Of a stretch of DNA of 64,000 nucleotides, positions 2,108 to 58,014 are shown in pieces. The stretch is from an uncultured Oscillospiraceae bacterium (lineage in GTDB: Bacteria > Bacillota > Clostridia > Oscillospirales > Ruminococcaceae), in contig CAYJEQ010000005.1 of NCBI GenBank assembly GCA_964369235.1, positions 2,464-66,463 of the forward strand, given 5' to 3'. Below the pieces are notes generated by a model that worked only from the letters and a program-made list of their open reading frames with translations, was not told the DNA's origin and did no database searches. A program made the position numbers and the translations under genes. The stretch's first letter is position 1. Every line of letters starts with the position of its first letter.

Positions 2108-2120
2108 GCCCTCACCTCCA

Positions 2121-3524: not shown

Positions 3525-3536
3525 ATGAAACTCCTC

Positions 3537-4526
3537 CTAAAAGGACATGGCATAGTGTAAAATCTCCATATCCTGTTCTACTGTTCCACCTGATACCCCT
3601 ATACCTCCTAGGGTAGTTTCCCCTAGTTTATAAGGAGCACCACCACCAAACAGTATTATTTTGCCTGGGGCTGATGTTTCTATTCCATAAAGTGGCTGTC
3701 CTGACTGGGATACACTCCCTAGTACATCTGTTGGCATCTTAAAGGCATTAGCCGTATAGGCTTTGCCTATCGCTACCTCTATACTGCCTAAGAATGAATC
3801 AGCCATTCTATTTAAAAGTATAAGATTTCCACCTTGATCCACCACTGCAAAAACAATGGGGACACCTATTTCTATGGATTTTTCTCTTGCTCTTTTTGCC
3901 ATAATCTCTGCCACTTCTAAGGTTAGAGGTGGTTTTTCCACTGGTATGGTAAGATTATTCATGGCTTTTTTCACAAGATCTGTAACCTGTTCTTTTAGAT
4001 TACTTGCCTTTGTGGTTTCCTCTTGCAGTCGTGCCATTGCATATATTGCATCAGAAAGTCTGTTTACATATTTTAAAAGAACCTGTTCTATATCCTCTAC
4101 AGAGGATAGCTCAACCATAGCTCTTTCTGCTCTGCGCACTATAGTCCTTGCAACATGAAGTGTTGCAGAGGCCTTATCCACTCCAGGAATTACAAAAGCT
4201 GTTTGCTTACCTACAATAGATGTGCAGTAATCAACTATACCTTCCAGATAAGAAATATCGTCGCTGTTAATTCTTCCAGTAAGTTTCTTTGCTGTTTCCC
4301 CATCACTGGCAAGCTCTGCCCCTAAGGAAAATAGCCTTTTCTGGATTTCTTTTACAGCTGCTCGAATATACTCTATATCTGTTTGGGAATAGGATAGCCC
4401 TAGCATTGAGTTAGCTTCATCTATAGTACCATAACAATCAACTCTCATGTCAGATTTACTTACTCGTAAACCTCCCACTAGACTTGTCTGTCCTTTGTCA
4501 CCTGTTTTGGTGTATAGATTTGCCAT
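3537..4526 (-). CDS. pduO: PduO-type ATP:cob(I)alamin adenosyltransferase fused to a DUF336/GlcG-like C-terminal domain
   Basis: 329 aa. The N-terminus (YTKTGDKGQTSLVGG) is the PduO-type adenosyltransferase signature. The C-terminal roughly 130 aa (GVPIVFAVVDQGGNLILLNRMD...GGGAP) resembles the heme-binding DUF336 domain found in PduO. Confidence 0.85.
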   Translation of the reverse strand: MANLYTKTGDKGQTSLVGGLRVSKSDMRVDCYGTIDEANSMLGLSYSQTDIEYIRAAVKEIQKRLFSLGAELASDGETAKKLTGRINSDDISYLEGIVDYCTSIVGKQTAFVIPGVDKASATLHVARTIVRRAERAMVELSSVEDIEQVLLKYVNRLSDAIYAMARLQEETTKASNLKEQVTDLVKKAMNNLTIPVEKPPLTLEVAEIMAKRAREKSIEIGVPIVFAVVDQGGNLILLNRMADSFLGSIEVAIGKAYTANAFKMPTDVLGSVSQSGQPLYGIETSAPGKIILFGGGAPYKLGETTLGGIGVSGGTVEQDMEILHYAMSF

Positions 4527-4527
4527 A

Positions 4528-4794
4528 TTATACTACCTCCACGGAATCAACTATTCCTACGATTGAGGCGTCAACAGGTGCATTATCATTGTCAAGAATT
4601 CTACGAGCAGAACTACCTGTAGCAACTATTACTATCTCGCCCACTCCAGCCCCTACGGTATCCACTGCTATTGCAGTTGATCCAACAGGCTCTTTGTGCT
4701 CATTTAGCTCTGCTACTATTAGTAGTTTCATACCAATTAGTAGCTCGTTTTTGCTGGTAGATACTACCGTTCCAACTACTTTACCTAAATACAT
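4528..4794 (-). CDS. pduN: BMC vertex pentamer protein (EutN/CcmL/PduN family)
   Basis: 88 aa starting MYLGKVVGTVVSTSK, which is the EutN/PduN family pattern. The operon position also fits. Confidence 0.85.
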   Translation of the reverse strand: MYLGKVVGTVVSTSKNELLIGMKLLIVAELNEHKEPVGSTAIAVDTVGAGVGEIVIVATGSSARRILDNDNAPVDASIVGIVDSVEVV

Positions 4795-4828
4795 AGTTTT
4801 TCATGCCTCTCTCTCGGTATTTCCTCTA

Positions 4829-5641
4829 TTAATTCTGTATTAACAGTGAAATATTTCTACGGTTAGCTTCGTCACGAGCTAGTTGGGTTATAAGTGAACC
4901 CTTGCTTATAACTGCTTCTCCGTTATTTGGTATAGTTCTCATATGCCCTGCACTAACAACCTTATCACTGATAAAAGTTCTAGTAGCAGTGCTATCTCTT
5001 TTCTCGGTTAATTGGGGTTGTGATTTATTAGTAGTTATTTCCACTCCGGTAACCTTCATTACCTTATGTGCCAAATTCTTATTAATAGTCAGCGTAGCCC
5101 CATAGCTTTTTAGAGTTTCCATATTCTCTCTTAGTTTTGCTTTTAAAGGTTCTGGTGTGTTAAAACCTCTTGCACTTCGATGTACATTATCTGGACAACA
5201 GCCATCAATTGCCACCACTACATTCTTGCCTTTTTGAAGAGCTAGAAATATAGTTTCGCTTGCAGTGCTATTTGACATACAAGCGACTATATGTGCAAGG
5301 GTATGTACTGTCATAGATGGCACTATAATTGTATGGTACTGGGAAATTTTTTCTTCCACAGTGCCTTCATAGCACTCCATCCAAACATTCTTTGCCTTTG
5401 TGGCTTCTTTGATTTTTGCTATTTCTAAAATCTTAGTAGCACCTCTTGACAAAAGCAAATCAAACTCATATCCTTCATCTGCTAGTTTTTTTAGAGAAAT
5501 AAGACCTTCTTCAAAGCCTATATCCGATCCTGTATAGATGACTAAAGCTTTCTTTTGTAGTTTCTTATATTTATCTACTACAGCGTTTACGATGTACTCT
5601 AGAAGTTCCTCGCCGCTCATAGCATCAAAACTTTTACCCAT
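4829..5641 (-). CDS. pduM: PduM-like microcompartment protein, long form
   Basis: 270 aa. The C-terminus (...GSLITQLARDEANRRNISLLIQN) matches my recollection of the Salmonella PduM C-terminus. It lies between eutJ and pduN, and its N-terminal helix is EELLEYIVNAVVDKYKK. Confidence 0.6.
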   Translation of the reverse strand: MGKSFDAMSGEELLEYIVNAVVDKYKKLQKKALVIYTGSDIGFEEGLISLKKLADEGYEFDLLLSRGATKILEIAKIKEATKAKNVWMECYEGTVEEKISQYHTIIVPSMTVHTLAHIVACMSNSTASETIFLALQKGKNVVVAIDGCCPDNVHRSARGFNTPEPLKAKLRENMETLKSYGATLTINKNLAHKVMKVTGVEITTNKSQPQLTEKRDSTATRTFISDKVVSAGHMRTIPNNGEAVISKGSLITQLARDEANRRNISLLIQN

Positions 5642-5659
5642 AAACGGTAATCACCTGCT

Positions 5660-6487
5660 TTACTCTGTACAGTTCATAGCTATCCCCAGTGGTGTTACCA
5701 GTAGCGGTGCTATTGGTTTCACCACCGAGATACCTACTTGTTTCTCGAATACCTTCTCAAATTGTGAGAAACAGCATGCACCACCTACTAGATATACAAT
5801 ATCTGCTGGTGACTGCTTAAGATAGTTATCCACTATAGATGCCATCTTCTCAACAACTGGTTTTATTACAGGGAACACATCGGATTCCTTTTGTGTATCC
5901 CTTTTAATTACCTCTGCTTCTTCGGTAGAACAACCGTGGAAACCTGCTAGTACAAGTGTCATGTGGGTGCCTCCTGTAGGCTCGTCGCCTGTGAAAACAA
6001 CCTGACCATCTTTAATAACACTAATCCCTGTTGTTCCTCCTCCTACATCTACTACTGCACCTTCGGTTAAACCAAGTACTGTAGCTGCTGCAGTAGGTTC
6101 ATCTAGAATGTTTGTCAGTCTAAAGCCAGCGGCTTCAACTACATTTCCTATTGCCTTAACACTGCCTGAGTGCACACCGGGAGGTATGGCACAAGCTGCA
6201 GCATCTAGGGTAACCCCCAGCTGTTTTTCCAGCTGATCTTTTAGCATAGTAACTACACGAACAGCGCCCATGTAATCCACCACAATACCATCACGAACAA
6301 CTGTAGAAGGGTAGGTAGCTCCTGCTATAGGAGTGTTATTCTCATCAACAACAGCCAAAACTATGTTTGCTGTGCCTAGATCCACCCCTGTACGAAGAGT
6401 ACCACTCCACTGTTTATTTTCCTTATTTTCAATAAGGCTCTGGAAGTCAAGTAGGACTTCGTTATAGTTTTCTGACATGTTTTCCAT
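5660..6487 (-). CDS. eutJ: EutJ-like actin/Hsp70-fold putative chaperone
   Basis: Contains GVDLGTANIV, DEPTAAA and VDVGGGTTGISV phosphate-binding motifs. The ORF track starts it at 6586. I prefer ATG at 6487 (MENMSENY...) because it has an AAGG RBS and gives an EutJ-like distance to the GVDLGT motif. The start remains uncertain. Confidence 0.75.
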   Translation of the reverse strand: MENMSENYNEVLLDFQSLIENKENKQWSGTLRTGVDLGTANIVLAVVDENNTPIAGATYPSTVVRDGIVVDYMGAVRVVTMLKDQLEKQLGVTLDAAACAIPPGVHSGSVKAIGNVVEAAGFRLTNILDEPTAAATVLGLTEGAVVDVGGGTTGISVIKDGQVVFTGDEPTGGTHMTLVLAGFHGCSTEEAEVIKRDTQKESDVFPVIKPVVEKMASIVDNYLKQSPADIVYLVGGACCFSQFEKVFEKQVGISVVKPIAPLLVTPLGIAMNCTE

Positions 6488-6625
6488 TCTAAACCTTATT
6501 CCTTTCTCGGTGTTTTGTGTGATTTTCTCATGGTTTTCTATGAGAAAATTTCGGGTGTTATAATGACCGAAAAACACAAAACCCATGTTTGAAACTTTGT
6601 TTCAAACTAACCTCCGAATTAAATT

Positions 6626-7270
6626 TTACAGGATATATCCATTGTCGCCGGTTTTTACACCTAGGCCATTGGCTTCGTCAATATCAATATGCATTTCCAA
6701 AGCATACTTATCAGATGCCCTTACTAAAACATTATTTAGTACAGCTCCTCTAGTAGTGCCCACTTCCACACTTACAAGGTCTCCGTCGGAAACACCCATT
6801 CTCTTAGCATCTGCTAATGTCATATGGATATGTCTGTAAGCTGCTATTACTCCCTGAGATTTACTAACAGATCCCTTAGGGCCAATTATCTCAATCCCCG
6901 GTGTATTATCTAGTTGACCTGATTCTCTTACAGGTGCTTTCACCCCCAGTGAAAAACCGTCGGTTACCGACACCTCTATCTGAGTTTCTGGTCTGAGAGG
7001 ACCTAGTATCCTAACCTTTTTCAGTTCACCTTTTGGGCCACGAATATTAACCGTTTCCTCACAAGCGTACTGTCCTGGCTGGATTAAATCCTTCATCTTT
7101 GTTAGCTCACTACCCTTACCAAATAACACATCCATATCCTCCCTTGACAGGTGGATATGTCGATTGGATACACCAATCACCACAGCTTTTTCCATCTTTA
7201 TAAGATTTTTTATAACTGTTCTGGTTATCTGGCGAATAAGTTCTTCATTAACAGGTAGATTATTACTCAT
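6626..7270 (-). CDS. pduL: Phosphate propanoyltransferase PduL
   Basis: 214 aa with duplicated PduL motifs (GVSNRHIHLS and AAYRHIHMT). The N-terminal helix is EELIRQITRTVIKNLIK. Confidence 0.9.
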   Translation of the reverse strand: MSNNLPVNEELIRQITRTVIKNLIKMEKAVVIGVSNRHIHLSREDMDVLFGKGSELTKMKDLIQPGQYACEETVNIRGPKGELKKVRILGPLRPETQIEVSVTDGFSLGVKAPVRESGQLDNTPGIEIIGPKGSVSKSQGVIAAYRHIHMTLADAKRMGVSDGDLVSVEVGTTRGAVLNNVLVRASDKYALEMHIDIDEANGLGVKTGDNGYIL

Positions 7271-7290
7271 CTTACATCATCCTCTTAATA

Positions 7291-7566
7291 TTATAGAGTC
7301 TTTGGTAGTATTCTCTCAACATCTGTGTGAGGACGAGGAATAACATGCTGTGAAACGATTTCGCCAACTTTTTCAGCTGCGCAAGCGCCTGCATCAACAG
7401 CAGCCTTAACTGCACCTACATCACCACGAACCATAACTGTTACTAGACCAGAACCGATTTTTTCGTATCCTACTAGTGTTACATTTGCAGATTTTGTCAT
7501 TGCGTCAGCTGCTTCGATTGCGCCAACTAGACCTTTAGTTTCGATCATTCCTAATGCTTCGCTCAT
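7291..7566 (-). CDS. pduJ: BMC-H hexameric shell protein (PduA/PduJ type)
   Basis: BMC domain ([21 protein letters not shown]...). The ORF track starts at 7581, but the ATGGAGGAT there supplies a GGAGG RBS 8 nt upstream of the second ATG (MSEALGM), so I place the start at 7566. Confidence 0.85.
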
Positions 7567-7621
7567 AATAATATCCTCCATTATTCCTATTATCTTAAGG
7601 AATTTTTCTTAAGTTTTGCTT

Positions 7622-8074
7622 TTATTTTTTTGCTCTACCCTTGCCTTTAGCTGGAGGAGTGTTTCCATCCTTCTCTTCTGGCTGGGTTTCTTCTGCTACT
7701 TCCACCACTTCTACTATTTCTTCTACTTCTTCTACCTGTAGCTCTACAGTATCTTCAGCAGTTTCCTCAGTAGTTTCTGGTGTGTAACCTACAGTATTCT
7801 CATTGTATACCATAGATATTAGACCAGCAGCAGGTCTTGCAATAACCTTGGATGTAACAAATGTTCCCATTTTTTTAGCTGACACCTCCGCAGCGTTTAT
7901 AGCAGCCTTTACAGCTCCTACATCACCTGTGATTTTTATGGTAGTCCAGCCGCCACCCTTAGCCATTTCATAACCGATTAACTGAACATTTGCAGATTTT
8001 ACCACAACATCTGCTGCTTCAACTGCTGCAAGAAGTCCTGCTACCTCGATTATACCTAGACTATTTAGCTTCAT
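7622..8074 (-). CDS. pduK: BMC-H shell protein with a long acidic/basic C-terminal tail (PduK-like)
   Basis: 150 aa. The N-terminal roughly 90 aa form a BMC domain (LGIIEVAGLLAAVEAADVVVKSANV). The C-terminal tail reads EETAEDTVELQVEEVEEIVEVVEVAEETQPEEKDGNTPPAKGKGRAKK. A GGAAGGAGG RBS lies upstream. Confidence 0.8.
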   Translation of the reverse strand: MKLNSLGIIEVAGLLAAVEAADVVVKSANVQLIGYEMAKGGGWTTIKITGDVGAVKAAINAAEVSAKKMGTFVTSKVIARPAAGLISMVYNENTVGYTPETTEETAEDTVELQVEEVEEIVEVVEVAEETQPEEKDGNTPPAKGKGRAKK

Positions 8075-8095
8075 CTTCCAACCTCCTTCCTATAT

Positions 8096-8461
8096 TTAAC
8101 CATTTTGCAGTGGTTTTAGAGGAAGTTTCTTAACCAGTCTGCCAGCATTTGCCCCTAGTGATCTTACTTTATCAGGATCATTAACCCTTATTTTAAAAAG
8201 TGGCTCATCTAAAGGTAGCTTTCTATAGTGTAGCACTGCAAATCCATTGTCAATAGCAATACCAACCTCTAATTGAGAGTTGTTTGCAGCCTCGTAGGCT
8301 GTTTGTATTGTATCGCCTAAATCTAAAATTTTAATATCCGTAGGGATACCTTCCTCTTCGATTCCGTTTTGCAGGCATTTAAGTAAAACTGTACTAGCTC
8401 CATCTACTGTATATATATGGATGCTAGGTTTTGCTGCTTGTAGTGGTGATTGCATTTGCAT
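8096..8461 (-). CDS. pduH: Diol dehydratase reactivase small subunit
   Basis: 121 aa. Its start overlaps the pduG stop (TAATG), and it occupies the expected position after pduG. Confidence 0.75.
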   Translation of the reverse strand: MQMQSPLQAAKPSIHIYTVDGASTVLLKCLQNGIEEEGIPTDIKILDLGDTIQTAYEAANNSQLEVGIAIDNGFAVLHYRKLPLDEPLFKIRVNDPDKVRSLGANAGRLVKKLPLKPLQNG

Positions 8462-10278
8462 TAACCCCTTTCTGCAGCAGATAGTACAAGTCCTGTAGCT
8501 ACGGCATTTCTCGGCCCTTCGGTTCCTCTGATATTACCTCTACCTGCCACAACTTTATATTGTGATAGGGCGTCAGTTACCATCTGTGGCACCTCAAAGT
8601 CTAAAGCAGAGCCTCCCACTAACACAACAAACTGTATATCCCTTACACTGCCTGTAGGGCTTACTCTTGTAAGTGCTCGAATGGCATTAGTTACAAAAAC
8701 CTTCTCCTTAGCCTGACGGCGAATCAGTCGTAGTTTCTCCATTGACCAGTCCCCTTCTAGTGGGATAAATCCACCGTCTTTTAGCACCACTACCTTAGCA
8801 AAGATATCTGGGCTTAGGGCTTTGTCAAAGAATTCTACTGTACCGTTTTCATGTCTGATGTGGAATAGACTCTCCACCCTTGCTAAAGGATATTTTTTAA
8901 CATCCTCTGCTAGAGCAAATTCATCAATACCCATCTCTGACTGAATTAGAAGTGTAACCATATTACCAGCACCTGCAAGGTGTATGGATTTTACATCCCC
9001 TGCACTATTTATAATAGAGGCATCGGTAGAACCTGCTCCCATATCAAGTATAGCCAGTGGTTTTTGTGTCCCTGGTGTGGTAAGTGCACCTAGTATTGCC
9101 ATGTCGGCTTCTACGCCTCCTACAGATACTGGCACCCCTACTCTTTCTGAGAAAGTATTGGCAATAGACTGCATCTGCAGTTTATCTGCCTTTACCATAG
9201 CTGCAATTCCAACTGCATTTTCCTGAGAGAACTCGTTGGCAATTCCTCCTCGCACCTTTTGTGGTGTAAAGGTATCTACTGCTAACAGATCCTGTATCTT
9301 AATTTCATTAGGATGTTTTGAGGTTAGGTTTGCCATTACCTGACGCACCTTCTCTAGCATTCCCCCAGCATTGGTGCCAGGTTCGCCTTTAACATCTTCT
9401 ATATCACCTATAGTTTCTACTGCTGTCATTATCTTCTGGGCGCCACCTTCTACATCAACTACCAGTTTCCTAGTTAGCCCCTGTATCTCCATGGTACCTG
9501 CTGGAATTTTTCTTTCCTTAACATCTCCTGAAGGAGTCTTGATAACTACTGCAGAGCGATTGCCTATAAGTGCTCGTGAAATAGGTACAACATGCTTAGT
9601 TTCTTCGGAATTTAGTTTAAATAGTGTTGCTATACCATAAGGGTTAGATAGTGTTTCCACCACCCCACCTACTGCAGCAACCTCTACTGCTGAAAGCATC
9701 CCCAGTGGAACTTTATCAATGAGTTTTACCTCGTCCACTATTGGCACCTTCACCTTAAGGCGATTGTGTATTAGTACACCATCGTCCTTTTGTACTATTG
9801 CAGCTGTAATCTGTCTACCTTGGTCAATACTTTGATTTATTAATGATGCTGCAACCTCAAAGTCAACATCGCCAGGTATTACCACTATATAATCCTTATC
9901 CTTTGGGGAGGAAAGCACCTCTGTTACCAGTATGGTTTCCCCTACCCCAACTCCTAATCCACCTGGGGTGGTAGGATTGTGTCCTATCATTGTAGATTCG
10001 GTGATAATGGTTTCTGTGATTGTTTCCATGGCAACATCGCCAATAACAGGTGCTGCTTCATTTAGCCTAATTTCGCTAACCTGACTTTCATCAAGGCCAG
10101 CTGCTGTTAGAGCTTTTTTTAATGAATGGAAGATACCGTTAATATTCTCCGGTGTACCCTTAATACCAGTGGTCATTACTGTACCACTAGATAGAAATAC
10201 TGCCTTGCCATTTTCTACACGGGCTAGGGCTGTTTCGGTAGTAGCATTACCGATATCTATTCCTGCAACAATTCTCAT
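8461..10278 (-). CDS. pduG: Diol dehydratase reactivase large subunit
   Basis: 605 aa. It has an actin/Hsp70-like ATPase N-terminus (IAGIDIGNATTE) and follows pduCDE. Confidence 0.9.
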   Translation of the reverse strand: MRIVAGIDIGNATTETALARVENGKAVFLSSGTVMTTGIKGTPENINGIFHSLKKALTAAGLDESQVSEIRLNEAAPVIGDVAMETITETIITESTMIGHNPTTPGGLGVGVGETILVTEVLSSPKDKDYIVVIPGDVDFEVAASLINQSIDQGRQITAAIVQKDDGVLIHNRLKVKVPIVDEVKLIDKVPLGMLSAVEVAAVGGVVETLSNPYGIATLFKLNSEETKHVVPISRALIGNRSAVVIKTPSGDVKERKIPAGTMEIQGLTRKLVVDVEGGAQKIMTAVETIGDIEDVKGEPGTNAGGMLEKVRQVMANLTSKHPNEIKIQDLLAVDTFTPQKVRGGIANEFSQENAVGIAAMVKADKLQMQSIANTFSERVGVPVSVGGVEADMAILGALTTPGTQKPLAILDMGAGSTDASIINSAGDVKSIHLAGAGNMVTLLIQSEMGIDEFALAEDVKKYPLARVESLFHIRHENGTVEFFDKALSPDIFAKVVVLKDGGFIPLEGDWSMEKLRLIRRQAKEKVFVTNAIRALTRVSPTGSVRDIQFVVLVGGSALDFEVPQMVTDALSQYKVVAGRGNIRGTEGPRNAVATGLVLSAAERG

Positions 10279-10324
10279 ATATGACCGTCCTTATTGCTTT
10301 GTAGTTATAACTACAAAACCCTAA

Positions 10325-10831
10325 TTAGAATTTCTTTAGTCTACCACGCTTGTCGTAAACTTCAGCAGCTTCACTTACTAGCTCAGCAGCTGTTACAGCA
10401 CCATATTTGTTCTTTAGCTCGGAAGCAATGTCTAGTAGCTCCTGCTTTGTAGAACGGTATGGACGAAGTGCGTTGTAAATCTCTAGTAGACGAGCATCTG
10501 GAACAGAGATAAGCTCTGCAGCTCTTCTTAGATTACCAGCAAATGCATGACGGTTAACAGATTCTGCAACCTGAGCCTGTAGCTCAAGAGTTTCAGGAGA
10601 AATTCTCATATCTTCTGCTGTTAACTCCCCAGCAATTAGCTTGTCAAAGCTTAGAGAAGTTAGAGCCTTACCTGTTGGTGTTTTGATGCACTCAGGCATT
10701 TTTTCAGATAGAGGATAGTTAGCAGCGCTTATTTTACCACCAGTTGATGTTGGTGCAGTTGGAGCTGTTGCCCCACCCATTTGTGCCATTACTTGCTCTA
10801 CGATTTGTTTCATCAGTTGTTCCTGGTTCAT
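10325..10831 (-). CDS. pduE: B12-dependent diol dehydratase small (gamma) subunit
   Basis: 168 aa, positioned after pduD. The N-terminal amphipathic extension is MNQEQLMKQIVEQVMAQMGG. Confidence 0.85.
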   Translation of the reverse strand: MNQEQLMKQIVEQVMAQMGGATAPTAPTSTGGKISAANYPLSEKMPECIKTPTGKALTSLSFDKLIAGELTAEDMRISPETLELQAQVAESVNRHAFAGNLRRAAELISVPDARLLEIYNALRPYRSTKQELLDIASELKNKYGAVTAAELVSEAAEVYDKRGRLKKF

Positions 10832-10845
10832 ATGTAAGTCCTCCT

Positions 10846-11493
10846 CTATTTAAATGAAACTGTTACAGCCTGTGGACGCTTGTTACCGTCAACATGCTCT
10901 GTTTCTTTAATATGTAGTAGTGCTGCAACAGCCTGATATTTAGGACGAGCCAGCTGGTCGTTTCTAACTGGTACAGGTGTTGGTGCTTCACCCTTAGCGT
11001 ATTTAGCTGCATTCTTACCCATCTGTCTAAATGTATCCAGATCAATAAGTGGAGCCTGAGAAAATAGCTCAAGGTTACTTAGCGGTGGTAGATCCTTCTG
11101 ATGGATAACTGATGTACCCTTAGACTGAATACCAATACCGATGCCAGAACCAGAGTATTTAGCAGCTTCATGAGCTACGAAAGATGCATCAGATGTCTGA
11201 TAAACCTTAATAATACGATATTTTAGGCCTTCTTCTTCGATACCAGCGATGATTTCTCTAAGAACTTTATCATGTGGCTGATGAATGATTGTTTCTGTCT
11301 GATATACACCAAAAGCTGGTGCTAGACCGATTACAACTTCGTCAGCAGCTGTGCCCTTAGGAGCGTCGCCTTGTTCGGTAAGAGTTAGTTTGCCAGCCTG
11401 TAGAGAACTAGCAGCAGGAGCAGAGCTTGTAGTGCCCATTTCCTTCATTACTTCTTCGATAATACTTCTTAATGTATTTGCATCTATATTCAT
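10846..11493 (-). CDS. pduD: B12-dependent diol dehydratase medium (beta) subunit
   Basis: The ORF track starts it at 11571, inside pduC. ATG at 11493 ([20 protein letters not shown]) has a GGGGTGAGGAAG RBS and lies 19 nt after the pduC stop, so I use 11493. Confidence 0.85.
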
Positions 11494-11512
11494 AATCTTC
11501 CTCACCCCTTCA

Positions 11513-13174
11513 TTAAATATCTTCAGGACGGATAGCACCTGAAATGTTGCTAATTTCTTCCCAACGAGCATCGCTCATCTGGTAACCTGTCATTGGACCC
11601 TTATATGTGTTAGGTGCATTAACAGCAGAAATTACATGGAAGCCTTCACCAAAGATGGAAGCTGTATGTAGGTAGTCCCCAGCAACTTTCTGTCTTAGCA
11701 TATTGTATACGCTATCAGCAATATCAGGGTAACCAGCAGCATTTAGACCCTTAACAAAGTCAACACCTGTTACATTTCTTGCCATCATGTCTTCGATTGC
11801 CTGTAGGTCTTCGTTAACATTACGAGGAGGCATATCGTTAGAACCATGAGCATATGTAGCAGCTTCTACTTCTTCGTCAGTAATAGCTGGTAGGCCTAGG
11901 TATTTAAATAGTCCCTGTAGAGCCTTAGCAGCTTTATTTCTAACTCTGATTACATCGTCCTCTGTTACCGGTCTTAGACCACCGTCAATCTTCATATCTC
12001 TCTGAATGATATTCCAGTCATCGTAGTCCTCAGCATCCCAGTTGGAACCAGCGAACATATTGTCATAGTTAGGTGTTGCAGAGTAACCAGAACAAATGTA
12101 GTCAGTACCAGCAAATAGCTGTGGAACACTACGAGCAACTCTTCTTAAATCAGAGTGTGTAAAGGTCTGGTCATTAGATGTTGTGGACTCTAGGTCAAAT
12201 AGCATACCGATTAGATTCTCAGCAGCTACAGCTCTGATACCACCAGGAACACCAGCAGGTACACCGATACAGGAAACAGAACCATTCTGTGTACCCTGTA
12301 CACCAGCACCCTTAGTAACAGCTAGACAACGAGCTTCTAGGTAAAGCATACTCTTACCTTCAGCGTAACCCATCTGTACTTCTGAACCAGTACCGGAAGT
12401 AAATCTCATTTTTAGACCACGGCTAGCATAGCAGGAAGCTAGGAAAGCCTTGGAGTATGGTGTATCATCACCATCCATAAATACAGGCTCTGAACCGTAT
12501 ACTGAGATTGTTTCAGCATATGTTGTAAAGCCCTTCATGCCTAGCTGAAGTTCAGTTGCTTCTTCTAGTGCACACTGTGTCATAACACCAGGTCTACCAA
12601 CCTGAGCACCGATCATTAGTGACATAGCATTAAATGGTGCGTATCTAGCGATACCAACTGTTGTTTCCATTTCGGAGAAACCACGGATACCAGCTTCAGC
12701 TGCATCTGCTGCAATCTGTACAGGATTATCTCGTACATTTGTAACATGGCACTGGTTAGAAGGCATTAGACGAGCACGCATTTTTGACATACCCATCATA
12801 ATTTCTACGATGTTTAGGCAACCAACAACTTCGGTAATTTTAGCCGGTGTTAGAGATAGTGTAATTGCTAGTACTTCGTCACGGGATACATTAATATCAA
12901 CGATTTTTCTAGCGATTTCATTTGAATCCATTGCCATAGCTTTTGCAGCATTGTCAAGACGGATTGCTCTATCAGCGATAAATGTATCAAGCATATCGAA
13001 TTCATCACGGGTTTTACCATCTAGTTCAGTAATTTTGCCGTTTTCGATTTTAATGCTCGGTTTAGGATCAAATGGGCTATTCATGGCAATTAGACCAACC
13101 TCTGCCCACTCTTTAACAAATCCATCCTGATTAACAGGTCTATTTTTTAGAACTTCAAAACGCTTTGATTTCAT
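11513..13174 (-). CDS. pduC: B12-dependent diol/glycerol dehydratase large (alpha) subunit
   Basis: 553 aa starting [23 protein letters not shown]. This N-terminus and the length are characteristic of PduC/DhaB1. Confidence 0.93.
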
Positions 13175-13207
13175 AATTTAGTACGGCTCCTTCCCAAAAA
13201 TTTATTA

Positions 13208-14005
13208 TTATAGGATATATGGCTGTGTGGAAGAATTAAGTGCTTCTTCTGGAGCCATTGCGTGTAATGCCATTTTACCTACATCTCTAGCAGCGATAAT
13301 AGCCTGTTTAACAGCACCGGAATCACCAGAGAATGTTATAATAACCTCATTGGAGTAGCTTGTTCCACCATTACCTGGGGAGCTGTAGCCTACTACATCA
13401 ACTGTTGCAGCCTTAACAGCTGTATCAGCAAGTAGTACACCGATAGCAGCAGGAGCACCTACAGTAATACCAAAGGATTTACCAATTGGAGCACCGAATG
13501 CTTTGTTTAGAGCGTAGCTTGCTCTAGCTGTGTACTGGAACTCAAGGTGACCAGCGGAGTTTCCGTATACATCACCAAATGTTCTGTCTAGCTCTCTTAG
13601 GCAAACTTCAACAGCTCTTCTTGCATCGGATACATCCTCAGCACCAAAGATGATTAAGCTACCATGACCAGCGCCACCCTGTGTATCACGAGGTAGTTCG
13701 ATTTTAACGATTTCGCAGTTTGTAGCTTTAATAGCTTCGTCAGCTGCAAAGATATGTGGGCCAGCACCTGTTCTAGCGCCGATGATACCGATGGAACGGT
13801 ATTTAGGATCGATTTCCATTTTTTCGTGGATCTGATTGTCTACATTAGCGATAACTAGACCGATTGTAGAACCAATAGCAGTACCTACGAATTCAGTAAG
13901 ACTTGTTGCAGGAGCGATATTTGCAGATTTTGTTGTTTCTGGAGCAGCAGTTCCTAGTTTCTTTAGAACTTCGTCCATAACCTTGTTTAGCATTTCTTCT
14001 TTCAT
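13208..14005 (-). CDS. pduB: Tandem-BMC-domain trimeric shell protein PduB
   Basis: 265 aa with two permuted BMC domains. The N-terminal helix is EEMLNKVMDEVLKKL, and it lies between pduA and pduC. Confidence 0.85.
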   Translation of the reverse strand: MKEEMLNKVMDEVLKKLGTAAPETTKSANIAPATSLTEFVGTAIGSTIGLVIANVDNQIHEKMEIDPKYRSIGIIGARTGAGPHIFAADEAIKATNCEIVKIELPRDTQGGAGHGSLIIFGAEDVSDARRAVEVCLRELDRTFGDVYGNSAGHLEFQYTARASYALNKAFGAPIGKSFGITVGAPAAIGVLLADTAVKAATVDVVGYSSPGNGGTSYSNEVIITFSGDSGAVKQAIIAARDVGKMALHAMAPEEALNSSTQPYIL

Positions 14006-14043
14006 TTGAGTTTACCTCCGTGTTTAATTTAATTAAATTTTAC

Positions 14044-14322
14044 TTATAGTGTTTTAGGTAATATTTTTTCCACATCTGTATGTGGTCTTGGGATTACATG
14101 TGTAGATACTACACAACCCACCTTAGCTGCTGCTACTGCTCCTGCTTCTGTAGATGCTTTTACAGCACCAACATCACCACGAACCATTACAGTCACTAGA
14201 CCTGAACCTATTTTCTCGTAGCCTACCAATGTTACATTGGCAGATTTAACCATTGCATCAGCAGCCTCAATAGCGCCAACTAAACCTTTGGTTTCAACCA
14301 TTCCTAATGCTTCTCTCTGCAT
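14044..14322 (-). CDS. pduA: BMC-H hexameric shell protein PduA; first gene of the operon
   Basis: 92 aa ([24 protein letters not shown]...[15 protein letters not shown]) with an AAAGGAGG RBS. By eye it is a close paralogue of the 7291-7566 product. Confidence 0.9.
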
Positions 14323-14599
14323 AATTAACCTCCTTTCGCCCTTTTATAGCCAAGTCATATACCAATTAAATATATGGCCTGTTTCCATTATATAACATTT
14401 TAGTGCAACTTTCTTGCTCAGTGTAGAGATTTTTTTTACATCAATTTGAATATTTTTCACTGAAATGTTCACAGAAAAACTATTGACAATAACCAAGTGG
14501 TTTTTTTTTACATATAGGTGTATTTAGTCGATGCTCTAACAATTTTCCATTGTAAATATTATGAAATTTACCTATATATTTAATACAATGTAAAAAAGT

Positions 14600-14690
14600 T
14601 GTATAGCAAATCTTAGGGGACAGTCCCTCTCCATCAGCGAGGGACTGTCCCCTAAGATAATTTCACCCTAACAATTAATATAGTGCCTAC
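14600..14690 (+). repeat. Copy A of the dispersed palindromic intergenic element
   Basis: Sequence: tatagcaaatCTTAGGGGACAGTCCCTC-tccatcagc-GAGGGACTGTCCCCTAAGataatttcaccctaacaattaatatagtgcc. It has an 18-bp perfect stem and shares flanks with five other copies. Confidence 0.85.
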
Positions 14691-14732
14691 AAAAAAGAGA
14701 ACAAAAATTATGTAAAATAATTTTTGTTCTCT
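14690..14732 (-). terminator. Intrinsic terminator after gldA
   Basis: A 15-bp stem (agagaacaaaaatta / taatttttgttctct) is followed on the minus strand by TTTTTTG. It lies 39 nt after the gldA stop. Confidence 0.7.
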
Positions 14733-14770
14733 TTATATTGTAAATCTTTACTATTAAATATTATAAAAAA

Positions 14771-15859
14771 TCATAATGTACTACCCAGTGCATCTGCTGA
14801 AATTATCGCTGCATATACATCATCAGCCGTGACAGGGAATGGCATATTATGGATTGTTTCACCTTCTACTGCTGCCAGTTTAGCTACTTCCATAATTTCT
14901 TCTGGTTTAACAGTGTCAATGCCCATTTCCTTTAGAGTTGTAGGTAGGCCTACTGCTCTACAGAAGAAAACTAGCTCCTCTATTTCTTCTAGTGGTGCAT
15001 TTTCTAGCACTAGCTGTACTAGAGTACCAAAAGCAACCTTCTCACCATGATATAGGTGGTGACACTCTTTAATTACTGTAAATCCATTGTGGATTGCATG
15101 GGCTGCTGCTAGTCCACCACTTTCAAAACCCAGTCCTGATAGTAGTGTATTTGCTTCAATAATATTTTCTACTGCTTTGGTGCAAACTTTTTTCTCAGCT
15201 GCTAACTTAGCCTTTACACCTTCGTTAATTAGTGTATTGTAGCACAGTTCAGACAGTGCCATTGCTGCAAGTGTGTTGGTGCCACCTGCACAGGTAGATG
15301 AATTAGATGCTGCTGTAGCTCTAGCCTCAAAATATGTTGCCAGTGCATCACCCATACCTGCTACAAGCAGTCTTACAGGTGCATTTACTATAATAGTGCT
15401 ATCTACAAGCACTAGATTTGGATTTGCTGGTAGGAATAGGTATCTTTCAAAAACACCTTCATCTGTATATATTACTGATAAAGCAGAACAAGGTGCGTCT
15501 GTAGATGCAATTGTCGGCACTATAACCACTGGGCATTTGCCGTAATGAGCCACTGCCTTAGCTGTATCGTGGATTTTACCACCACCAATACCTACTACTA
15601 CATTACAATCGTTGTTTTTTGCTATGTCTAGTACACGATTGATTTCATTTTCAGAGCATTCACCATTAAATGCTTCATAAACTACTGTACAACCAGCACC
15701 ACTAAAGCTAGTATTTAGCACATCTCCAGTTCTCTTAAGCCCACTCTCACTAATTAGCACTAGGACTTTATCCCCTAGATTTTTTGTATATGTGCCTATT
15801 TCTGATATTACTCCTGCACCCTGTACATATTTATTAGGTGATATTATAACTTTAGCCAT
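14771..15859 (-). CDS. gldA: Glycerol dehydrogenase (family III metal-dependent polyol dehydrogenase)
   Basis: 362 aa. The N-terminus SPNKYVQGAGVI, the GIGGGKIHDTAKAVA motif and the His-rich metal site (AAAHAIHNGFT...HGEKVAFG) are typical of GldA. Confidence 0.85.
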   Translation of the reverse strand: MAKVIISPNKYVQGAGVISEIGTYTKNLGDKVLVLISESGLKRTGDVLNTSFSGAGCTVVYEAFNGECSENEINRVLDIAKNNDCNVVVGIGGGKIHDTAKAVAHYGKCPVVIVPTIASTDAPCSALSVIYTDEGVFERYLFLPANPNLVLVDSTIIVNAPVRLLVAGMGDALATYFEARATAASNSSTCAGGTNTLAAMALSELCYNTLINEGVKAKLAAEKKVCTKAVENIIEANTLLSGLGFESGGLAAAHAIHNGFTVIKECHHLYHGEKVAFGTLVQLVLENAPLEEIEELVFFCRAVGLPTTLKEMGIDTVKPEEIMEVAKLAAVEGETIHNMPFPVTADDVYAAIISADALGSTL

Positions 15860-17364: not shown

Positions 17365-18891
17365 TTATCTAATTTCTAGGATTTCTGCTAGGTTGTGGTA
17401 GATATCTGTGTTATCATAAGTACCACCGAACATCTCAGCACCTACACCCTGTGCATAAGTACCTACTGTTGTTGCTGTATGAGAATAAGAGCTAAAATCA
17501 ACACCTGCTTTATTATTTAGAACATGAGTAATAGTTACTGTTAGAGGATCATATCCGCCGTAGATAATACCTGATTCCTGCTCACCTACTGTAGCACCAT
17601 GTACGGACACATTGTATGCATCTCTGATTTTTTCTAGCTCATAATCAGTTAGTTTAAAGTCACTTGTATCTGTTGGGTTAGTTGTAAGTCCAAAGTAGCT
17701 TTCAATATCTTTTAGCACTGTTTCAAAAGGGGTTTTGTTAGCGATGTAGCCTTCTACATAATCAGCTTCAAAAGCTTCGTAGGAACCCTGCTGATAACCA
17801 ATCATATTAAGGAATGTATCGTATTTTGTACCAGCATAACCGATGGATAGTCCACCTGTTTCATGGTCACCAGTTACAACTATTAGTGTTTCATCTGGGT
17901 GCTTCTCATAAAACTCATAAGCTTCCTGTATAGCCTTATCAAATGCTAGTGTATCAGAGATAGAGGATCTTGCATCATTCGCATGGCAAGCCCAGTCGAT
18001 TTTACCAGCTTCTACCATCATAAAGAAACCTTCATCATTGTCTAGCACTTCGATACCTTTTTCTACATAGTCAGCTAATGCCCACATATTATCTTCACGG
18101 TCACTTTCGTATGGAAGTGCACCGCCATTTGTGTCCTCACCTACAATAATTACCTTACCTGTGTTTTCATCTACCTTCTCAGCTGCTGCCTGATCTTCAA
18201 GAATTACTGTATAGCCTGCTTCTTCTGCTAGGCTGTAGATATTTTCCTGATCGCCTGTTTTGCCTTCTGGCTGATTAATAGCACCACCAGCAAAATAATC
18301 AAAGTCAGATTCCACTAGTTCTAATGCAATGTCATAGTAGTTATTTCTTGATTCGTTATGGGCATAGTAAGCTGCTGGTGTAGCATGGTTAATTGTTACG
18401 CTGGATACAATGCCGATTTTATAATCTTTTTGCTCTTTTAACTGTTCTGCAATTGTTTCGTATTTCTGGGTAAAGGTTTCATTCATATTAATTGTGCCAC
18501 TGTATGTTTTCTCACCTGTTGCTAGGGAAGTTGCTGTGGAAGCTGAGTCTGGTGCAAAAGATGTAGAGTCATAGGTAGAAGTAATACCAGCTACATCAAA
18601 ATCCATAAAGCTCAGTCTTTCCTTACTTACTAGAATATCTGAGCCCTCTGGCTGATTAAGTGTGTCTATATAGTAGTTAGCCAGCTGTGTTTGTGAGTGG
18701 CTCATACCATCTCCTACAAACATAAATACATATTTAGGCATATCTCCATCATAACTCCCCACCACTCTTGTGGAAGCTTCTGCTGTTTCTACTGGAGTAG
18801 TAATTGCTGATACTGCGTTTACTCCTATTGCTGCTACCATTGCTAAAGTAATTCCTTTAATTAATAAGCTTTTTTTCATTTTAGTGACCAT
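17365..18891 (-). CDS. Secreted alkaline phosphatase (PhoA family)
   Basis: 508 aa. It has a signal peptide (MKKSLLIKGITLAMVAAIGVNAVSA), a VGDGMS metal site, a DSASTATSLATG nucleophile-Ser motif, and GDHETGG. Confidence 0.85.
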   Translation of the reverse strand: MVTKMKKSLLIKGITLAMVAAIGVNAVSAITTPVETAEASTRVVGSYDGDMPKYVFMFVGDGMSHSQTQLANYYIDTLNQPEGSDILVSKERLSFMDFDVAGITSTYDSTSFAPDSASTATSLATGEKTYSGTINMNETFTQKYETIAEQLKEQKDYKIGIVSSVTINHATPAAYYAHNESRNNYYDIALELVESDFDYFAGGAINQPEGKTGDQENIYSLAEEAGYTVILEDQAAAEKVDENTGKVIIVGEDTNGGALPYESDREDNMWALADYVEKGIEVLDNDEGFFMMVEAGKIDWACHANDARSSISDTLAFDKAIQEAYEFYEKHPDETLIVVTGDHETGGLSIGYAGTKYDTFLNMIGYQQGSYEAFEADYVEGYIANKTPFETVLKDIESYFGLTTNPTDTSDFKLTDYELEKIRDAYNVSVHGATVGEQESGIIYGGYDPLTVTITHVLNNKAGVDFSSYSHTATTVGTYAQGVGAEMFGGTYDNTDIYHNLAEILEIR

Positions 18892-19093: not shown

Positions 19094-19176
19094 GGCTCTA
19101 TATTAATTGTTGGGGTAAAATTCAGTTGGGGTACCGTCCATCGGCGAGGGACGGTACCCCAACATTTGATATTGAA
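19094..19176 (-). repeat. Copy B of the palindromic intergenic element (inverted orientation)
   Basis: Sequence: ggctctatattaattgttggggtaaaattcaGTTGGGGTACCGTCC-atcggcgag-GGACGGTACCCCAACatttgatattgaac. Confidence 0.85.
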
Positions 19177-19220
19177 CCTTCCTTTTTTTATCGCCTACTC
19201 CTACTATTGACAAAGAGCCG

Positions 19221-19256
19221 CAAAAAAAGACAGCAACCAATATAGTTACTGTCTTT
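19221..19256 (-). terminator. Intrinsic terminator after hydA
   Basis: Minus strand reads aagacagtaac-tatattg-gttgctgtctTTTTTTTG. It lies about 60 nt after the hydA stop. Confidence 0.7.
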
Positions 19257-19315
19257 TATAATGATTATCTAATACATCTATTTGATGCTACTAGAAATGT
19301 TTTACTAGTTATCTA

Positions 19316-21073
19316 CTAAAACTTACTTCTAGCTTTATACTTAGTATGTAGTATTTCATGAGCTTTATGTCCACCAAATTCGTCATTAAAGAACTCTGTG
19401 TAGATTTTCTTTAGAACTGGGTTTTCATGGCTCTTTCTCAGTGTATCCTTAGCATCATCAGCATATAGTGCTGCTGCTCTCTGGCTTCTTAGATCAACGA
19501 AGTTTCTAACTGTAGCACTCTGTACTGGCTGTCCACCACCGTTAATACAACCACCTGGGCAACCCATAATTTCGATAAAGTCATACTCAACTTCACCTGC
19601 TTTAATTCTATCAAGAAGAGTCTGAGCATTTCTTAGGCCAGATGCAACTGCAACTCTAACCTTAGTGCCTTTAAGGTCGTAGGTAGCTTCTTTAATACCT
19701 TCCATACCACGAACTTCCATAAAGTCAAGGCTTGTAGCTGGTAGCTCTTCCCCTGTTACCCACTCAGCAGCAGTTCTTAGAGCAGCTTCCATAACACCAC
19801 CGGTAGCACCGAAGATTGTAGCAGCACCTGTGGAAACACCTAGTGGTGCATCAAATGTGCTATCTGGAAGATGTCTAAAGTAGATACCAGCTCTGCTAAT
19901 CATACGAGCAAGCTCTCTTGTTGTTAGAGCAATATCAACATCGGAGATTCCTTCTCCAGCTGCACACTCATGGTCACGCTTAGTTTCAAACTTCTTAGCT
20001 GTACAAGGCATAATACCTACAACTACAATATCCTTAGGATCTAGGTTGTTTTCCTTAGCATACCATGTTTTAGCTAGAGCACCAAACATCTGCTGTGGTG
20101 ATTTACAAGTAGATAGATTTGGAATCATCTCTGGGTAGTAATGCTCACAGAATTTTACCCAACCTGGAGAACAGGAGGTAATCATTGGCAGTGTGCCACC
20201 CTTAGTAAATCTTTCGATAAACTCGTTAGCTTCCTCTACAATTGTAAAGTCAGCAGCAAGGTCGGTATCATATACACCATCAAAGCCCAGTAGACGCAGT
20301 GCGGTTACCATCTTACCCTCTACATTAGAACCAATGGACATACCAAAAGCTTCCCCTAGAGTTACACGAATAGATGGAGCCGTCTGTACAATAACATGCT
20401 TTGTTGGATCATTAATAGCTGCCCACACATCTTCTGTATGGTCTTTTTCTGTAATAGCACCTGTTGGACATACTACGATACACTGTCCACAGGATACACA
20501 CGCTACCTCACCTAAGTCCATGTCAAAGGCACAACCTATATGAGTATTAAATCCTCTGTCATTGACGCCGATTACAGATACTGACTGCCACTTCTTACAC
20601 GCAGCTACACATCTACGACATAGGATACATTTATTATTATCACGAACCATATGAATTGCTGAGTCATCAAAGTCATATCTAACATTCTCACCAGCAAATC
20701 TATCTTCGTCCTCAACATTAAAGTCCTGACAAAGTTTCTGTAACTCACAGTTGTTAGCTCTTAGACAGGATAGACATTTCTTGTCATGAGTGGATAGTAT
20801 TAGCTCTAGGTTGTTTCTTCTAGAATCAAATACCCTTGTGCTGTTTGTCAGTATTTCCATACCTTCTGATACTGGATGCACACAGGAAGCTACTAGGTTT
20901 TTTGCACCCTTAACTTCTACTACACAGATACGACAAGCACCGATTTCGTTAATCTCTCTTAGGTAACACAGTGTAGGAATCTCAATACTATTCTCCCTAC
21001 ATGCTTCAAGTATTGTGGAGCCAGGTGTAACTTTTGCATCTACACCATTTATTTTAATATTAATTAGTTCCAT
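19316..21073 (-). CDS. hydA: [FeFe]-hydrogenase catalytic subunit (HydA/HndD type)
   Basis: 585 aa. It has an N-terminal plant-type 2Fe-2S site (CYLREINEIGACRIC) and accessory 4Fe-4S motifs. The H-cluster motifs are TSCSPGW (L1), MPCTAKKFE (L2) and EIMGCPGGCINGGG (L3). Confidence 0.92.
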   Translation of the reverse strand: MELINIKINGVDAKVTPGSTILEACRENSIEIPTLCYLREINEIGACRICVVEVKGAKNLVASCVHPVSEGMEILTNSTRVFDSRRNNLELILSTHDKKCLSCLRANNCELQKLCQDFNVEDEDRFAGENVRYDFDDSAIHMVRDNNKCILCRRCVAACKKWQSVSVIGVNDRGFNTHIGCAFDMDLGEVACVSCGQCIVVCPTGAITEKDHTEDVWAAINDPTKHVIVQTAPSIRVTLGEAFGMSIGSNVEGKMVTALRLLGFDGVYDTDLAADFTIVEEANEFIERFTKGGTLPMITSCSPGWVKFCEHYYPEMIPNLSTCKSPQQMFGALAKTWYAKENNLDPKDIVVVGIMPCTAKKFETKRDHECAAGEGISDVDIALTTRELARMISRAGIYFRHLPDSTFDAPLGVSTGAATIFGATGGVMEAALRTAAEWVTGEELPATSLDFMEVRGMEGIKEATYDLKGTKVRVAVASGLRNAQTLLDRIKAGEVEYDFIEIMGCPGGCINGGGQPVQSATVRNFVDLRSQRAAALYADDAKDTLRKSHENPVLKKIYTEFFNDEFGGHKAHEILHTKYKARSKF

Positions 21074-24866: not shown

Positions 24867-25214
24867 ATGACAATTAATAGGATTAAAGAACTACTAGAAG
24901 CTACTGTTATCTGTGGCGATGACAATCTAGACCAAGAGGTACTTACCGCTTGTGGAAGCGATATGATGAGTGATGTATTAGCCTATGTAAAAGAACAGTC
25001 CATTTTGCTTACAGGACTTGTGAATTCACAGGTTATACGCACTGCAGAGATGATGGATTTTAGCTGTGTAATTTTTGTCCGTGGGAAAAAGCCTGATCAG
25101 GATATGATTGATCTTGCCAATGACCGAGGAATTATACTTATGTCCTCGCCTAAAAGAATGTTTGTTGCCTGTGGGATTCTTTATCAAAATGGATTAAAAG
25201 GAGAGCTGGAATAA
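24867..25214 (+). CDS. DRTGG-domain protein
   Basis: 115 aa, small single-domain protein (…SILLTGLVNSQVIRTAEMMDFSCVIFVRGKKP…GIILM). It has an AAGGAG RBS. The family assignment is from memory. Confidence 0.55.
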   Translation: MTINRIKELLEATVICGDDNLDQEVLTACGSDMMSDVLAYVKEQSILLTGLVNSQVIRTAEMMDFSCVIFVRGKKPDQDMIDLANDRGIILMSSPKRMFVACGILYQNGLKGELE

Positions 25215-25633
25215 TGTCATTACTATCCTTGGTTTTTACTGTAGATGGTGATGATTTTAGCCGAGCTGGAACCGCATCTAGCAGTACCAAAGCACAACTA
25301 AAAAAACTAGGACTGCCCTCTGATATTATCAGAAGGGTAGCTATTGCTATGTATGAAGGCGAGATAAACATGGTAATACACGCAAATGGTGGTACTGCCT
25401 CAGTGGAGGTAAAGGAAGACTCTATTATAATAACGCTAAATGATGTAGGTCCAGGTATCCCTGATATTCCTAAAGCTATGGAAGAAGGATTTTCCACTGC
25501 CACTGATACTGTACGCAGTTTAGGTTTTGGGGCTGGTATGGGGCTACCTAATATGAAAAAATACACCGATAGTATTGACATCACCAGTGAAGTAGGTGTT
25601 GGTACTAATGTAATTATGCTTATTAATATTTAA
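25214..25633 (+). CDS. Anti-sigma-factor-like GHKL ATPase / serine kinase
   Basis: 139 aa. It has an N-box-like EGEINMVIHA, a G1 box DVGPGIPD and a G2 box GFGAGMGLPN, resembling SpoIIAB/RsbW-type proteins. Its start overlaps the previous stop (TAATG). Confidence 0.65.
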   Translation: MSLLSLVFTVDGDDFSRAGTASSSTKAQLKKLGLPSDIIRRVAIAMYEGEINMVIHANGGTASVEVKEDSIIITLNDVGPGIPDIPKAMEEGFSTATDTVRSLGFGAGMGLPNMKKYTDSIDITSEVGVGTNVIMLINI

Positions 25634-25655
25634 AAACTAATATAAGGAGAGGCCA

Positions 25656-26999: not shown

Positions 27000-27315
27000 A
27001 ATTATAGCAGATGAGAATTTCACAGAGGAAGTAATGGTAGAAGACAGGGAGATAAGCTCTATCTACTGTTGTGACCTACTGAGTATAGCAATGGCTAAAG
27101 CTCCTATGGACGGTATCTGGGTTACTGTTATGGCAAATGCCAATACCCTTGCAGTTGCAAGCCTAGCTGATATATCCTGTGTGGTCTTTGCCGATGGTAC
27201 TCGACTAACACCACAGGACAGTCAAACAGCAAAGGATAAAGGTATTAATGTGCTTTATACAAACCTTGATATATTTACTGCTGCAGTTAAAATCAAAGAA
27301 ATACTAGGACTATAA
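26989..27315 (+). CDS. Second DRTGG-domain protein
   Basis: 108 aa (…GIWVTVMANANTLAVASLADISCVVFADGTRL…). It overlaps the upstream stop by 11 nt. Confidence 0.5.
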   Translation: MIGKIIADENFTEEVMVEDREISSIYCCDLLSIAMAKAPMDGIWVTVMANANTLAVASLADISCVVFADGTRLTPQDSQTAKDKGINVLYTNLDIFTAAVKIKEILGL

Positions 27316-29862: not shown

Positions 29863-29898
29863 AATAGTCAAATTTCTTATATAGCCTTATAACAAAAC

Positions 29899-29963: not shown

Positions 29964-29973
29964 AACAAAACTA

Positions 29974-57899: not shown

Positions 57900-58014
57900 T
57901 TTAAACCTAATAATTATTTTAAACTATACAGGGTGTACTCTGTGGATTTGCAAGGATTTATATTATTTATCTTCTATCCACAGAGTTTGCCCTATAAATT
58001 TGAGGTGAATTATC

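Follow-up and report, generated by a model that had tools for sequence, protein, structure and literature searches.

Insertion sequences of the ISL3 family have inverted repeats that start with GG and an 8-bp direct repeat (ISfinder), and their transposition is poorly characterised. Small non-autonomous derivatives of the family are also known. An ISL3-family MITE of 187 nt from Microcystis aeruginosa PCC 7806 has matching inverted repeats and 8-nt direct repeats (PMC11448079). Methanosarcina acetivorans carries a 179-bp MITE in 6 copies, for which ISMac21, a member of ISL3, is the potential partner (PMC3852290). The stretch of DNA analysed here, referred to as the window, is 64 kb long and contains six short palindromic elements of this general kind. 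The reading preferred, with a probability of about 0.9, is that they are non-autonomous MITEs, which arose as internal-deletion derivatives of an ISL3-family insertion sequence (IS).

A hidden Markov model built from the copies, as the preliminary description had proposed, was run on the 64-kb window and recovered exactly six related elements of 65-91 bp (nhmmer E 2.7e-24 to 2.2e-12). The only other matches of the model in the window are reverse-strand echoes of the palindromes (nhmmer). The end motifs, searched in the window with up to 3 mismatches, gave 7 matches against 0.44 expected from shuffled sequence for one motif and 5 against 0.10 for the other. Reading of the sequence, alignment and the model agree that the six copies reported at the outset exist, with limits shifted by a few bases at most. 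The two ends match at 14 of 17 positions, as had been counted, and the strictly intergenic placement holds for all six copies, each lying between ORFs.

Copy A (14597-14687, + strand, 91 bp, E 2.7e-24) has a BMC shell gene (14044-14322, -) on one side and an Fe-alcohol dehydrogenase gene (14771-15859, -) on the other. Its hairpin spans 14612-14656, and the copy folds as single-stranded DNA at -23.5 kcal/mol (z -8.0). Copy B (19094-19178, -, 85 bp, E 1.2e-23, hairpin 19125-19163) is flanked by an alkaline phosphatase gene (17365-18891, -) and an [FeFe]-hydrogenase gene (19316-21073, -). Copies C and D occupy the interval between the convergent genes ptsI and leuS. Copy C (29899-29963, +, 65 bp, E 2e-13) lies 37 nt past the ptsI stop codon and 10 nt ahead of the ptsI terminator; it is without the inner 26 nt of the hairpin, and a small residual hairpin is left at 29913-29933. 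Copy D (30100-30188, -, 89 bp, E 4.7e-21) begins 18 nt downstream of the stop codon of leuS (30206-32620, -). It has a 20-bp perfect hairpin (30130-30174), a single-stranded DNA fold of -25.7 kcal/mol (z -7.9) and a degenerate right, IRL-type end.

Copies E and F are downstream of a small ORF. Copy E (approximately 63837-63921, +, E 1.1e-15) has a hairpin with two G-T wobbles at 63853-63889 (fold z -6.6), and the outer portion of its left end is missing or degenerate. Copy F (63947-64000, +), identified by the model (E 2.2e-12) and by alignment, follows copy E after 25 nt in the identical orientation and is cut by the window end. The small ORF, of 111 aa (63507-63842), ends at copy E and has only a weak partial match to the CitMHS transporter family, which at E 5e-4 stays below threshold; it is possibly what remains of a gene beside the tandem E/F insertions.

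Multiple alignment bears out the architecture originally described and confirms that it is common to the six copies. It consists of a left end, GTTGGGG, a variable stem, CCCTCGC-loop-GCGAGGG, the complementary stem, CCCCAA, an internal spacer of ~10 nt (AATTTTA) and a right end, CCCAACAATTAATATAG-nGCC. At 65-91 bp and without an ORF, the elements are well under the 500 bp of a MITE, and the six dispersed copies in 64 kb share a common interior with an identical junction. The occurrence of this one internal junction, hairpin plus AATTTTA spacer, in all six argues for descent from a single deletion derivative that multiplied.

The terminal inverted repeats are ~23 bp long and read GGYTCTATA(n5-6)TGTTGGGGT. 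The two ends are 75% complementary over 21 aligned positions, compared with 31-48% when the register is slid. Copy C has the best-preserved inverted repeats of the six, with 17 of 21 Watson-Crick pairs plus one G-T. In copy A a G-to-A change, giving TTAGGG in place of TTGGGG, is present in all three GTTGGGG motifs, that is in the two terminal repeats and the 3' hairpin foot (14612-14618, 14650-14657 and 14667-14673). The triple change is concerted and, being known from one copy, has no ready explanation.

Target-site duplications, for which a search had been advised in the preliminary description, were found. Copy C is flanked by AACAAAAC on the left (29891-29898) and by the identical sequence on the right (29964-29971), a perfect 8-bp duplication. 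An 8/8 match at the spacing of copy C occurs once in 63,919 window positions, namely at the copy C site itself, and the chance of the perfect duplication is ~1e-4 or less. The 8-mers flanking copy A, TGTAAAAA and TACAAAAA, match at 6/8 (chance P ~0.01). No recognisable duplication was seen in the flanks of copy B, and the 7/8 match in the flanks of copy D, obtained only after a one-base shift of both ends, was not counted. The duplication is therefore perfect in one of the five complete copies, and its fixed length is judged on copies C (8/8) and A (6/8).

Autonomous IS with matching ends were found in other genomes and none in the window. The right-end 17-mer CCYAACAATTAATATAG was scanned for by exact match in one genome per species, covering 185,579 species. 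This gave 67 loci, and all genomes but one had single, evidently chance matches in unrelated sequence. The exception, Ureibacillus endophyticus DSM 100506, has nine loci in which the motif forms the repeat tip ...AAACCCCAACAATTAATATAGAACC. The sequences diverge beyond the repeat tip, and seven of the nine loci are ~100 nt from a contig end; contig-end loci include L007, L009, L012, L031, L053, L060 and L063. Seven contig ends broken by the element point to a multicopy IS in this genome.

A complete Ureibacillus copy (locus L026, 6052-7514) is 1,463 bp long and has one ORF of 405 aa, in which Pfam recognises DDE_Tnp_ISL3 (E 3.9e-69), Zn_ribbon_ISL3 and HTH_Tnp_ISL3. Its IRL is GGTTCTATATTAATTGTTGGGGT, its IRR, read inward, is GGTCCTTTGTCAAATGTTGGGGTA, and it is flanked by a perfect 8-bp duplication, TAAATAAA. 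At E <= 1e-60 more than 1,300 homologues of this transposase were found; those with names are mostly called "ISL3 family transposase", and their hosts are Ureibacillus, Rummeliibacillus, Lysinibacillus, Sporosarcina, Solibacillus, Virgibacillus and some MAGs. Eight transposase-bearing relatives, with 60-86% amino acid identity to the Ureibacillus transposase, were examined. All eight show the same Pfam set as the complete Ureibacillus copy, so these ends are carried by DDE_Tnp_ISL3 elements. In every case where the DNA examined extends to the end, the IRL is GGYTCTATAWTAWWTGTTGGGGT and the IRR is ...CCCCAACAWTTGAYnnnGnnCC.

Perfect 8-bp duplications also flank a Rummeliibacillus relative (TTTTTATA), a Virgibacillus relative (L079, AAAATTTT) and the relative at L081 (TCCTTTTC). 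Four IS insertions in all, the complete Ureibacillus copy and three relatives, have perfect duplications, and the sites that show them are L026, L075-77, L079, L081 and MITE copy C. At L078 the IS interrupts a Peptidase_M17 gene, and its duplication is 7/8. A start with GGYTC and 8-bp duplications, the features of the ISL3 family, are common to the ends of the IS relatives and of the MITEs. In the plasmid collection the ISL3 transposases have only ~30% identity to the Ureibacillus transposase, which places this subgroup outside the familiar plasmid-borne ISL3 elements.

The ends of the MITEs are those of the transposase-bearing elements. The right end of copy B, GGCTCTATATTAATTGTTGGGGTA, matches the Ureibacillus IRL at 22/24 and that of copy C (...GGGATA) at 21/24, and the other ends of these two copies, GGTTCAATATCAAATGTTGGGGTA and GGTTCTATAGCAAATGTTGGGGTA, match ends of IS relatives at 21-22/24. 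The right MITE end can be assigned as IRL by identity alone. The left MITE end is about equally similar to the IRLs and the IRRs of the IS; its putative assignment as IRR is based on the shared CAAATGTTGGGG motif and on where the hairpin lies, overall identity being not decisive. The left end GGTTCTaTtGCAAA also resembles IS6/IS26-type repeats (GGTTCTGTTGCAAAGTT). The IS6 family was dropped as a candidate because the elements carrying both ends encode ISL3, not IS6, transposases.

In the IRR of the IS relatives (~7497-7502 in the complete Ureibacillus copy) there is an outward-facing, -35-like TTGACA about 10 nt from the tip. At this position the MITEs read TTGATA or TTGCTA, as in copies B (19167-19172) and D (30176-30181). 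Judged from these motifs, insertions could in principle create hybrid promoters. A promoter scan gave counts no higher than shuffled sequence.

The internal hairpin is the second common feature of the elements. Its core folds at -14 to -26 kcal/mol as DNA, with z of -5 to -9 on either strand (ssDNA/RNA folding). In the hairpin alignment 94% of the cells are paired, and 8 of 20 pairs have changes on both sides. None of 500 shuffles was as good, and pairing drops to 41-50% when the register is slid. Depending on the copy, the variable block is ACAG, TACCG, CATAT, TGTAT or TACCGT, and each time its exact complement is present on the opposite arm. All three wobble pairs are G-T on the same strand. 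The hairpin abuts one inverted repeat, so that the foot of the stem is the GGGG of that repeat.

A similar arrangement is found in some of the full-length relatives. In L071, L072, L073 and L082/83 a hairpin arm runs into the CCCC/GGGG of the IRR, as in the MITE, with a hairpin sequence unrelated to that of the MITE. In L072 and L073 the hairpin is followed, reading inward, by a T6 run. The relatives at L026, L075, L078 and L081 have a different arrangement. We infer that the MITE kept an IRR-adjacent hairpin module from its parent IS.

Together the ISL3-type terminal inverted repeats and the 8-bp target duplication single out the mobile non-autonomous element from the options first considered. 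As a mechanism we propose that a cognate DDE transposase of the ISL3 family, with its gene elsewhere, would bind both ends and excise or copy the element. Insertion would follow a staggered cut of 8 bp in intergenic DNA rich in A/T, in many cases near terminator T-tracts, and the stagger would give rise to the 8-bp target-site duplication. Mobilisation would thus be in trans, presumably by a partner IS within the same genome. In the window itself, no transposase, RAYT, Y1 or integrase domain was found by Pfam in the 60 main ORFs, and the best match of an ISL3 transposase in a tblastn search of the whole window had E = 0.76. This agrees with the earlier remark that the window is without a transposase, RAYT or integrase gene. 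Some points count against the MITE reading: the ISL3 transposase gene missing from the window, the perfect duplication in just one of the five complete copies with none at copy B, the ambiguous similarity of the left end, and the compensatory variation of the hairpin, which is heavier than would be expected of a passively decaying MITE.

The hairpin variation also speaks for an RNA-level explanation, according to which the elements are primarily RNA modules (an sRNA, a 3'-UTR stabiliser or an intrinsic terminator), retained for their hairpin, with transposon-like ends that are incidental or historical. The three G-T wobbles confined to one strand fit an RNA, and 5 of the 6 copies face the upstream gene with the hairpin followed by AATTTTA. 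In a loose consensus scan for terminators, copies C and D pass (D as hairpin plus TAATTTTACC on the leuS strand) and A and B do not; D, moreover, is 18 nt past the leuS stop with no other terminator between. However, canonical terminators consisting of a hairpin and U6/U7 stand directly beside A, B and C (14694-14735, -; 19224-19257, -; 29973-30004, +), 6-45 nt from the copies, so the genes there can do without the element. Behind the MITE hairpin the T-run reaches just 4 nt, at an offset of 5-7 nt, copy A has the opposite orientation, and the 5/6 bias is not significant. Copy C keeps the best ends despite the loss of its hairpin core, and the symmetry of a palindrome can persist through hairpin-templated repair without selection. 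The Rfam comparison suggested at the outset gave no match at gathering thresholds in the whole window. Sub-threshold matches are to generic hairpin models such as miRNA precursors; for copies C and D at E <= 1 the best is a miRNA hairpin model with 31.5 bits, compared with a threshold of 90. With no Rfam match, separate terminators at A, B and C and mixed orientation to the genes, the sRNA/terminator module that had been offered as the identity of the elements is improbable as their primary nature. Some copies may have a secondary role as terminators.

Short palindromes of this sort also bring to mind REP-like sequences moved by RAYT, or elements of the IS200/IS605 type, in which single-stranded DNA hairpins are recognised by a Y1 (HUH) transposase. 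Each copy does have a stable G+C-rich ssDNA hairpin (z -5 to -9), the copies are intergenic and dense, and changes in the stem sequence leave its pairing intact. Terminal inverted repeats and target duplications are both absent from REP and IS200/IS605 elements, and IS200/IS605-derived elements have subterminal hairpins. The window elements have ~22-bp terminal inverted repeats and an 8-bp duplication, so both the REP/RAYT and the IS200/IS605 interpretations fail. In addition, DDE (ISL3) elements have identical ends, and the window ORFs scanned contain no Y1/RAYT gene. A bare palindrome served by a Y1 transposase is not what is seen here, nor is an IS200/IS605-derived palindromic element, on the same grounds of repeats and duplication. 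Such an origin is therefore scarcely credible. The description of the ends as MITE/REP-like stands in its MITE part, with ISL3 repeats and duplication, and falls in its REP part, and the inverted repeats and duplication speak against the RAYT and IS200/IS605 TnpA genes suggested as partners. The six copies could instead be independent relics of full-length ISL3 copies, each of which lost its interior in place. The ends are indeed ISL3 ends, and B, D and E have degenerate ends or are without a duplication. Against this, the deletion junction, spacer and hairpin layout are identical in all copies, which six separate deletions would not reproduce, and no copy has a trace of the transposase reading frame. 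Independent decay is thus very improbable.

If the elements are ISL3-derived MITEs, the meaning of their hairpin has still to be considered. The GGGG at the hairpin foot is probably part of the repeat bound by the transposase. In the parent IS the hairpin may act as a barrier to read-through transcription, since in several relatives a T-run comes after it, reading inward from the IS end. The position of the hairpin is conserved across full-length relatives and MITE copies and its sequence is not, which is the basis for regarding it as a working part of this ISL3 subgroup. That it is such a part, or that this genome has recruited the MITE as a strand-specific barrier to transcription or as a terminator, is on balance unlikely. 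The covariation could come from selection on the mobile lineage, from host selection or from hairpin-templated palindrome repair, and six copies cannot separate these sources. In copy C the loss of the hairpin core is symmetrical, and this copy nevertheless combines the best ends with the sole perfect duplication; the hairpin is either dispensable for insertion or was deleted afterwards. Any host role of the hairpin is secondary. If the hairpin is functional, ISL3 transposition or its control might depend on a folded single strand, of DNA or RNA, that hides or exposes an end. A compensated, repeat-adjacent hairpin conserved in position is a concrete, testable feature of the ISL3 family; the MITE family itself does not represent a novel sort of system.

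The window is ordinary core chromosome with a G+C content of 36-42%. It carries a diol-dehydratase microcompartment operon, hydrogenase genes, leuS, smc, ftsY, rnc and plsX, as well as topA, infC, rplT, tgt and queA. The microcompartment locus (782-14322) is of the B12-dependent diol/glycerol dehydratase type, with large, medium and small dehydratase subunits, a reactivase, PTAC, EutN, an aldehyde dehydrogenase, a cobalamin adenosyltransferase and several BMC shell genes. Two of the shell-gene paralogues (7291-7572 and 14044-14325) have 75% DNA identity. Elsewhere in the window, upstream of a MatE efflux gene (58015-59421), is an imperfect inverted repeat of 38 nt (57910-57947 and 57976-58013) with 71% complementarity, for which Rfam gave no match.

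All the clear target duplications, TAAATAAA, TTTTTATA, AAAATTTT and TCCTTTTC in the IS and AACAAAAC in copy C, are A/T runs. A preference for A/T tracts as targets would explain the placement of the MITEs at operon boundaries. Some full-length ISL3 relatives (L073, L071, L026 and L075) are also inserted at or near terminator T-tracts. Six copies in a 64-kb stretch of core chromosome suggest a burst of an ISL3 derivative in an uncultured Clostridia-like lineage. Because the closest autonomous relatives were found in aerobic Bacillales, there is also a hint of horizontal spread of the parent IS. For annotation, the repeats should be labelled as ISL3-type MITEs and not as candidate sRNAs, REPs or new regulatory hairpins.

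Searches of other collections added little to this distribution. A 21-nt end pattern, scanned against metagenomes, matched a Ureibacillus-type IS end and one chance sequence and nothing else, and the scan of viral sequences with the whole-element pattern found nothing. The genome, metagenome and viral scans demand exact matches, so absence from these collections is weak evidence. Chance-level matches were all that a query with MITE DNA gave in the plasmid collection. Apart from a database entry identical to it (P0001), the nearest available relatives of the ptsI protein are at loci L068 and L074 (59% amino acid identity), the next being at 45% ("Oscillospiraceae bacterium"). No copies of the element are present in the parts of L068 and L074 that were read. 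The neighbourhood upstream of copy C (24867-27315), with DRTGG, HATPase, Fe-hydrogenase-like and ptsI genes, is partly common to these two loci. Synteny ends at ptsI, and the C/D insertion site is thus without a counterpart in either.

The window family can now be compared with the systems it resembles. Like REP and BIME sequences associated with RAYT, it consists of short intergenic palindromes, present in large numbers and able to fold as ssDNA or RNA. Unlike it, REPs have no terminal inverted repeats around the palindrome and no target duplication, and depend on a Y1 (HUH) enzyme.

The MITE of Microcystis is a closer parallel, being non-coding, with imperfect inverted repeats that match ISL3, 8-nt repeats and a stem-loop (PMC11448079). 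It differs in its inverted repeat (GGCTCTTCG...), in its length, which is about twice that of the window elements, and in its cyanobacterial host (PMC11448079). Its transposition was observed between laboratory strains (PMC11448079), whereas the mobility of the window family is deduced from its structure. The MITE of Methanosarcina is likewise a miniature derivative whose ISL3 partner was assigned by shared ends, as was done here, but its host is an archaeon, it is longer and its sequence is unrelated (PMC3852290). Miniature derivatives of ISL3 have thus been described before, and the window family is distinct from them in sequence, size and host. The preliminary description had not recognised a named family; no name of its own was found for it, and it nevertheless belongs to a known class, the ISL3-derived MITEs.

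The closest counterparts are the ISL3 IS of Ureibacillus, Rummeliibacillus, Virgibacillus dokdonensis and uncultured Bacillota. These are elements of 1.4-1.5 kb with a DDE_Tnp_ISL3 transposase of ~400 aa, in contrast to the ORF-less 65-91 bp of the MITEs, and their hairpins are unrelated in sequence to the MITE hairpins. Their hosts are aerobic Bacillales, whereas the source of the window is anaerobic and Clostridia-like. The IS and the MITEs share the ends GGYTCTATAWTAWWTGTTGGGGT, with matches of up to 22/24, the 8-bp A/T-rich duplication and insertion near terminator T-tracts. In four of the IS relatives, as in the MITEs, a hairpin abuts the GGGG of one inverted repeat.
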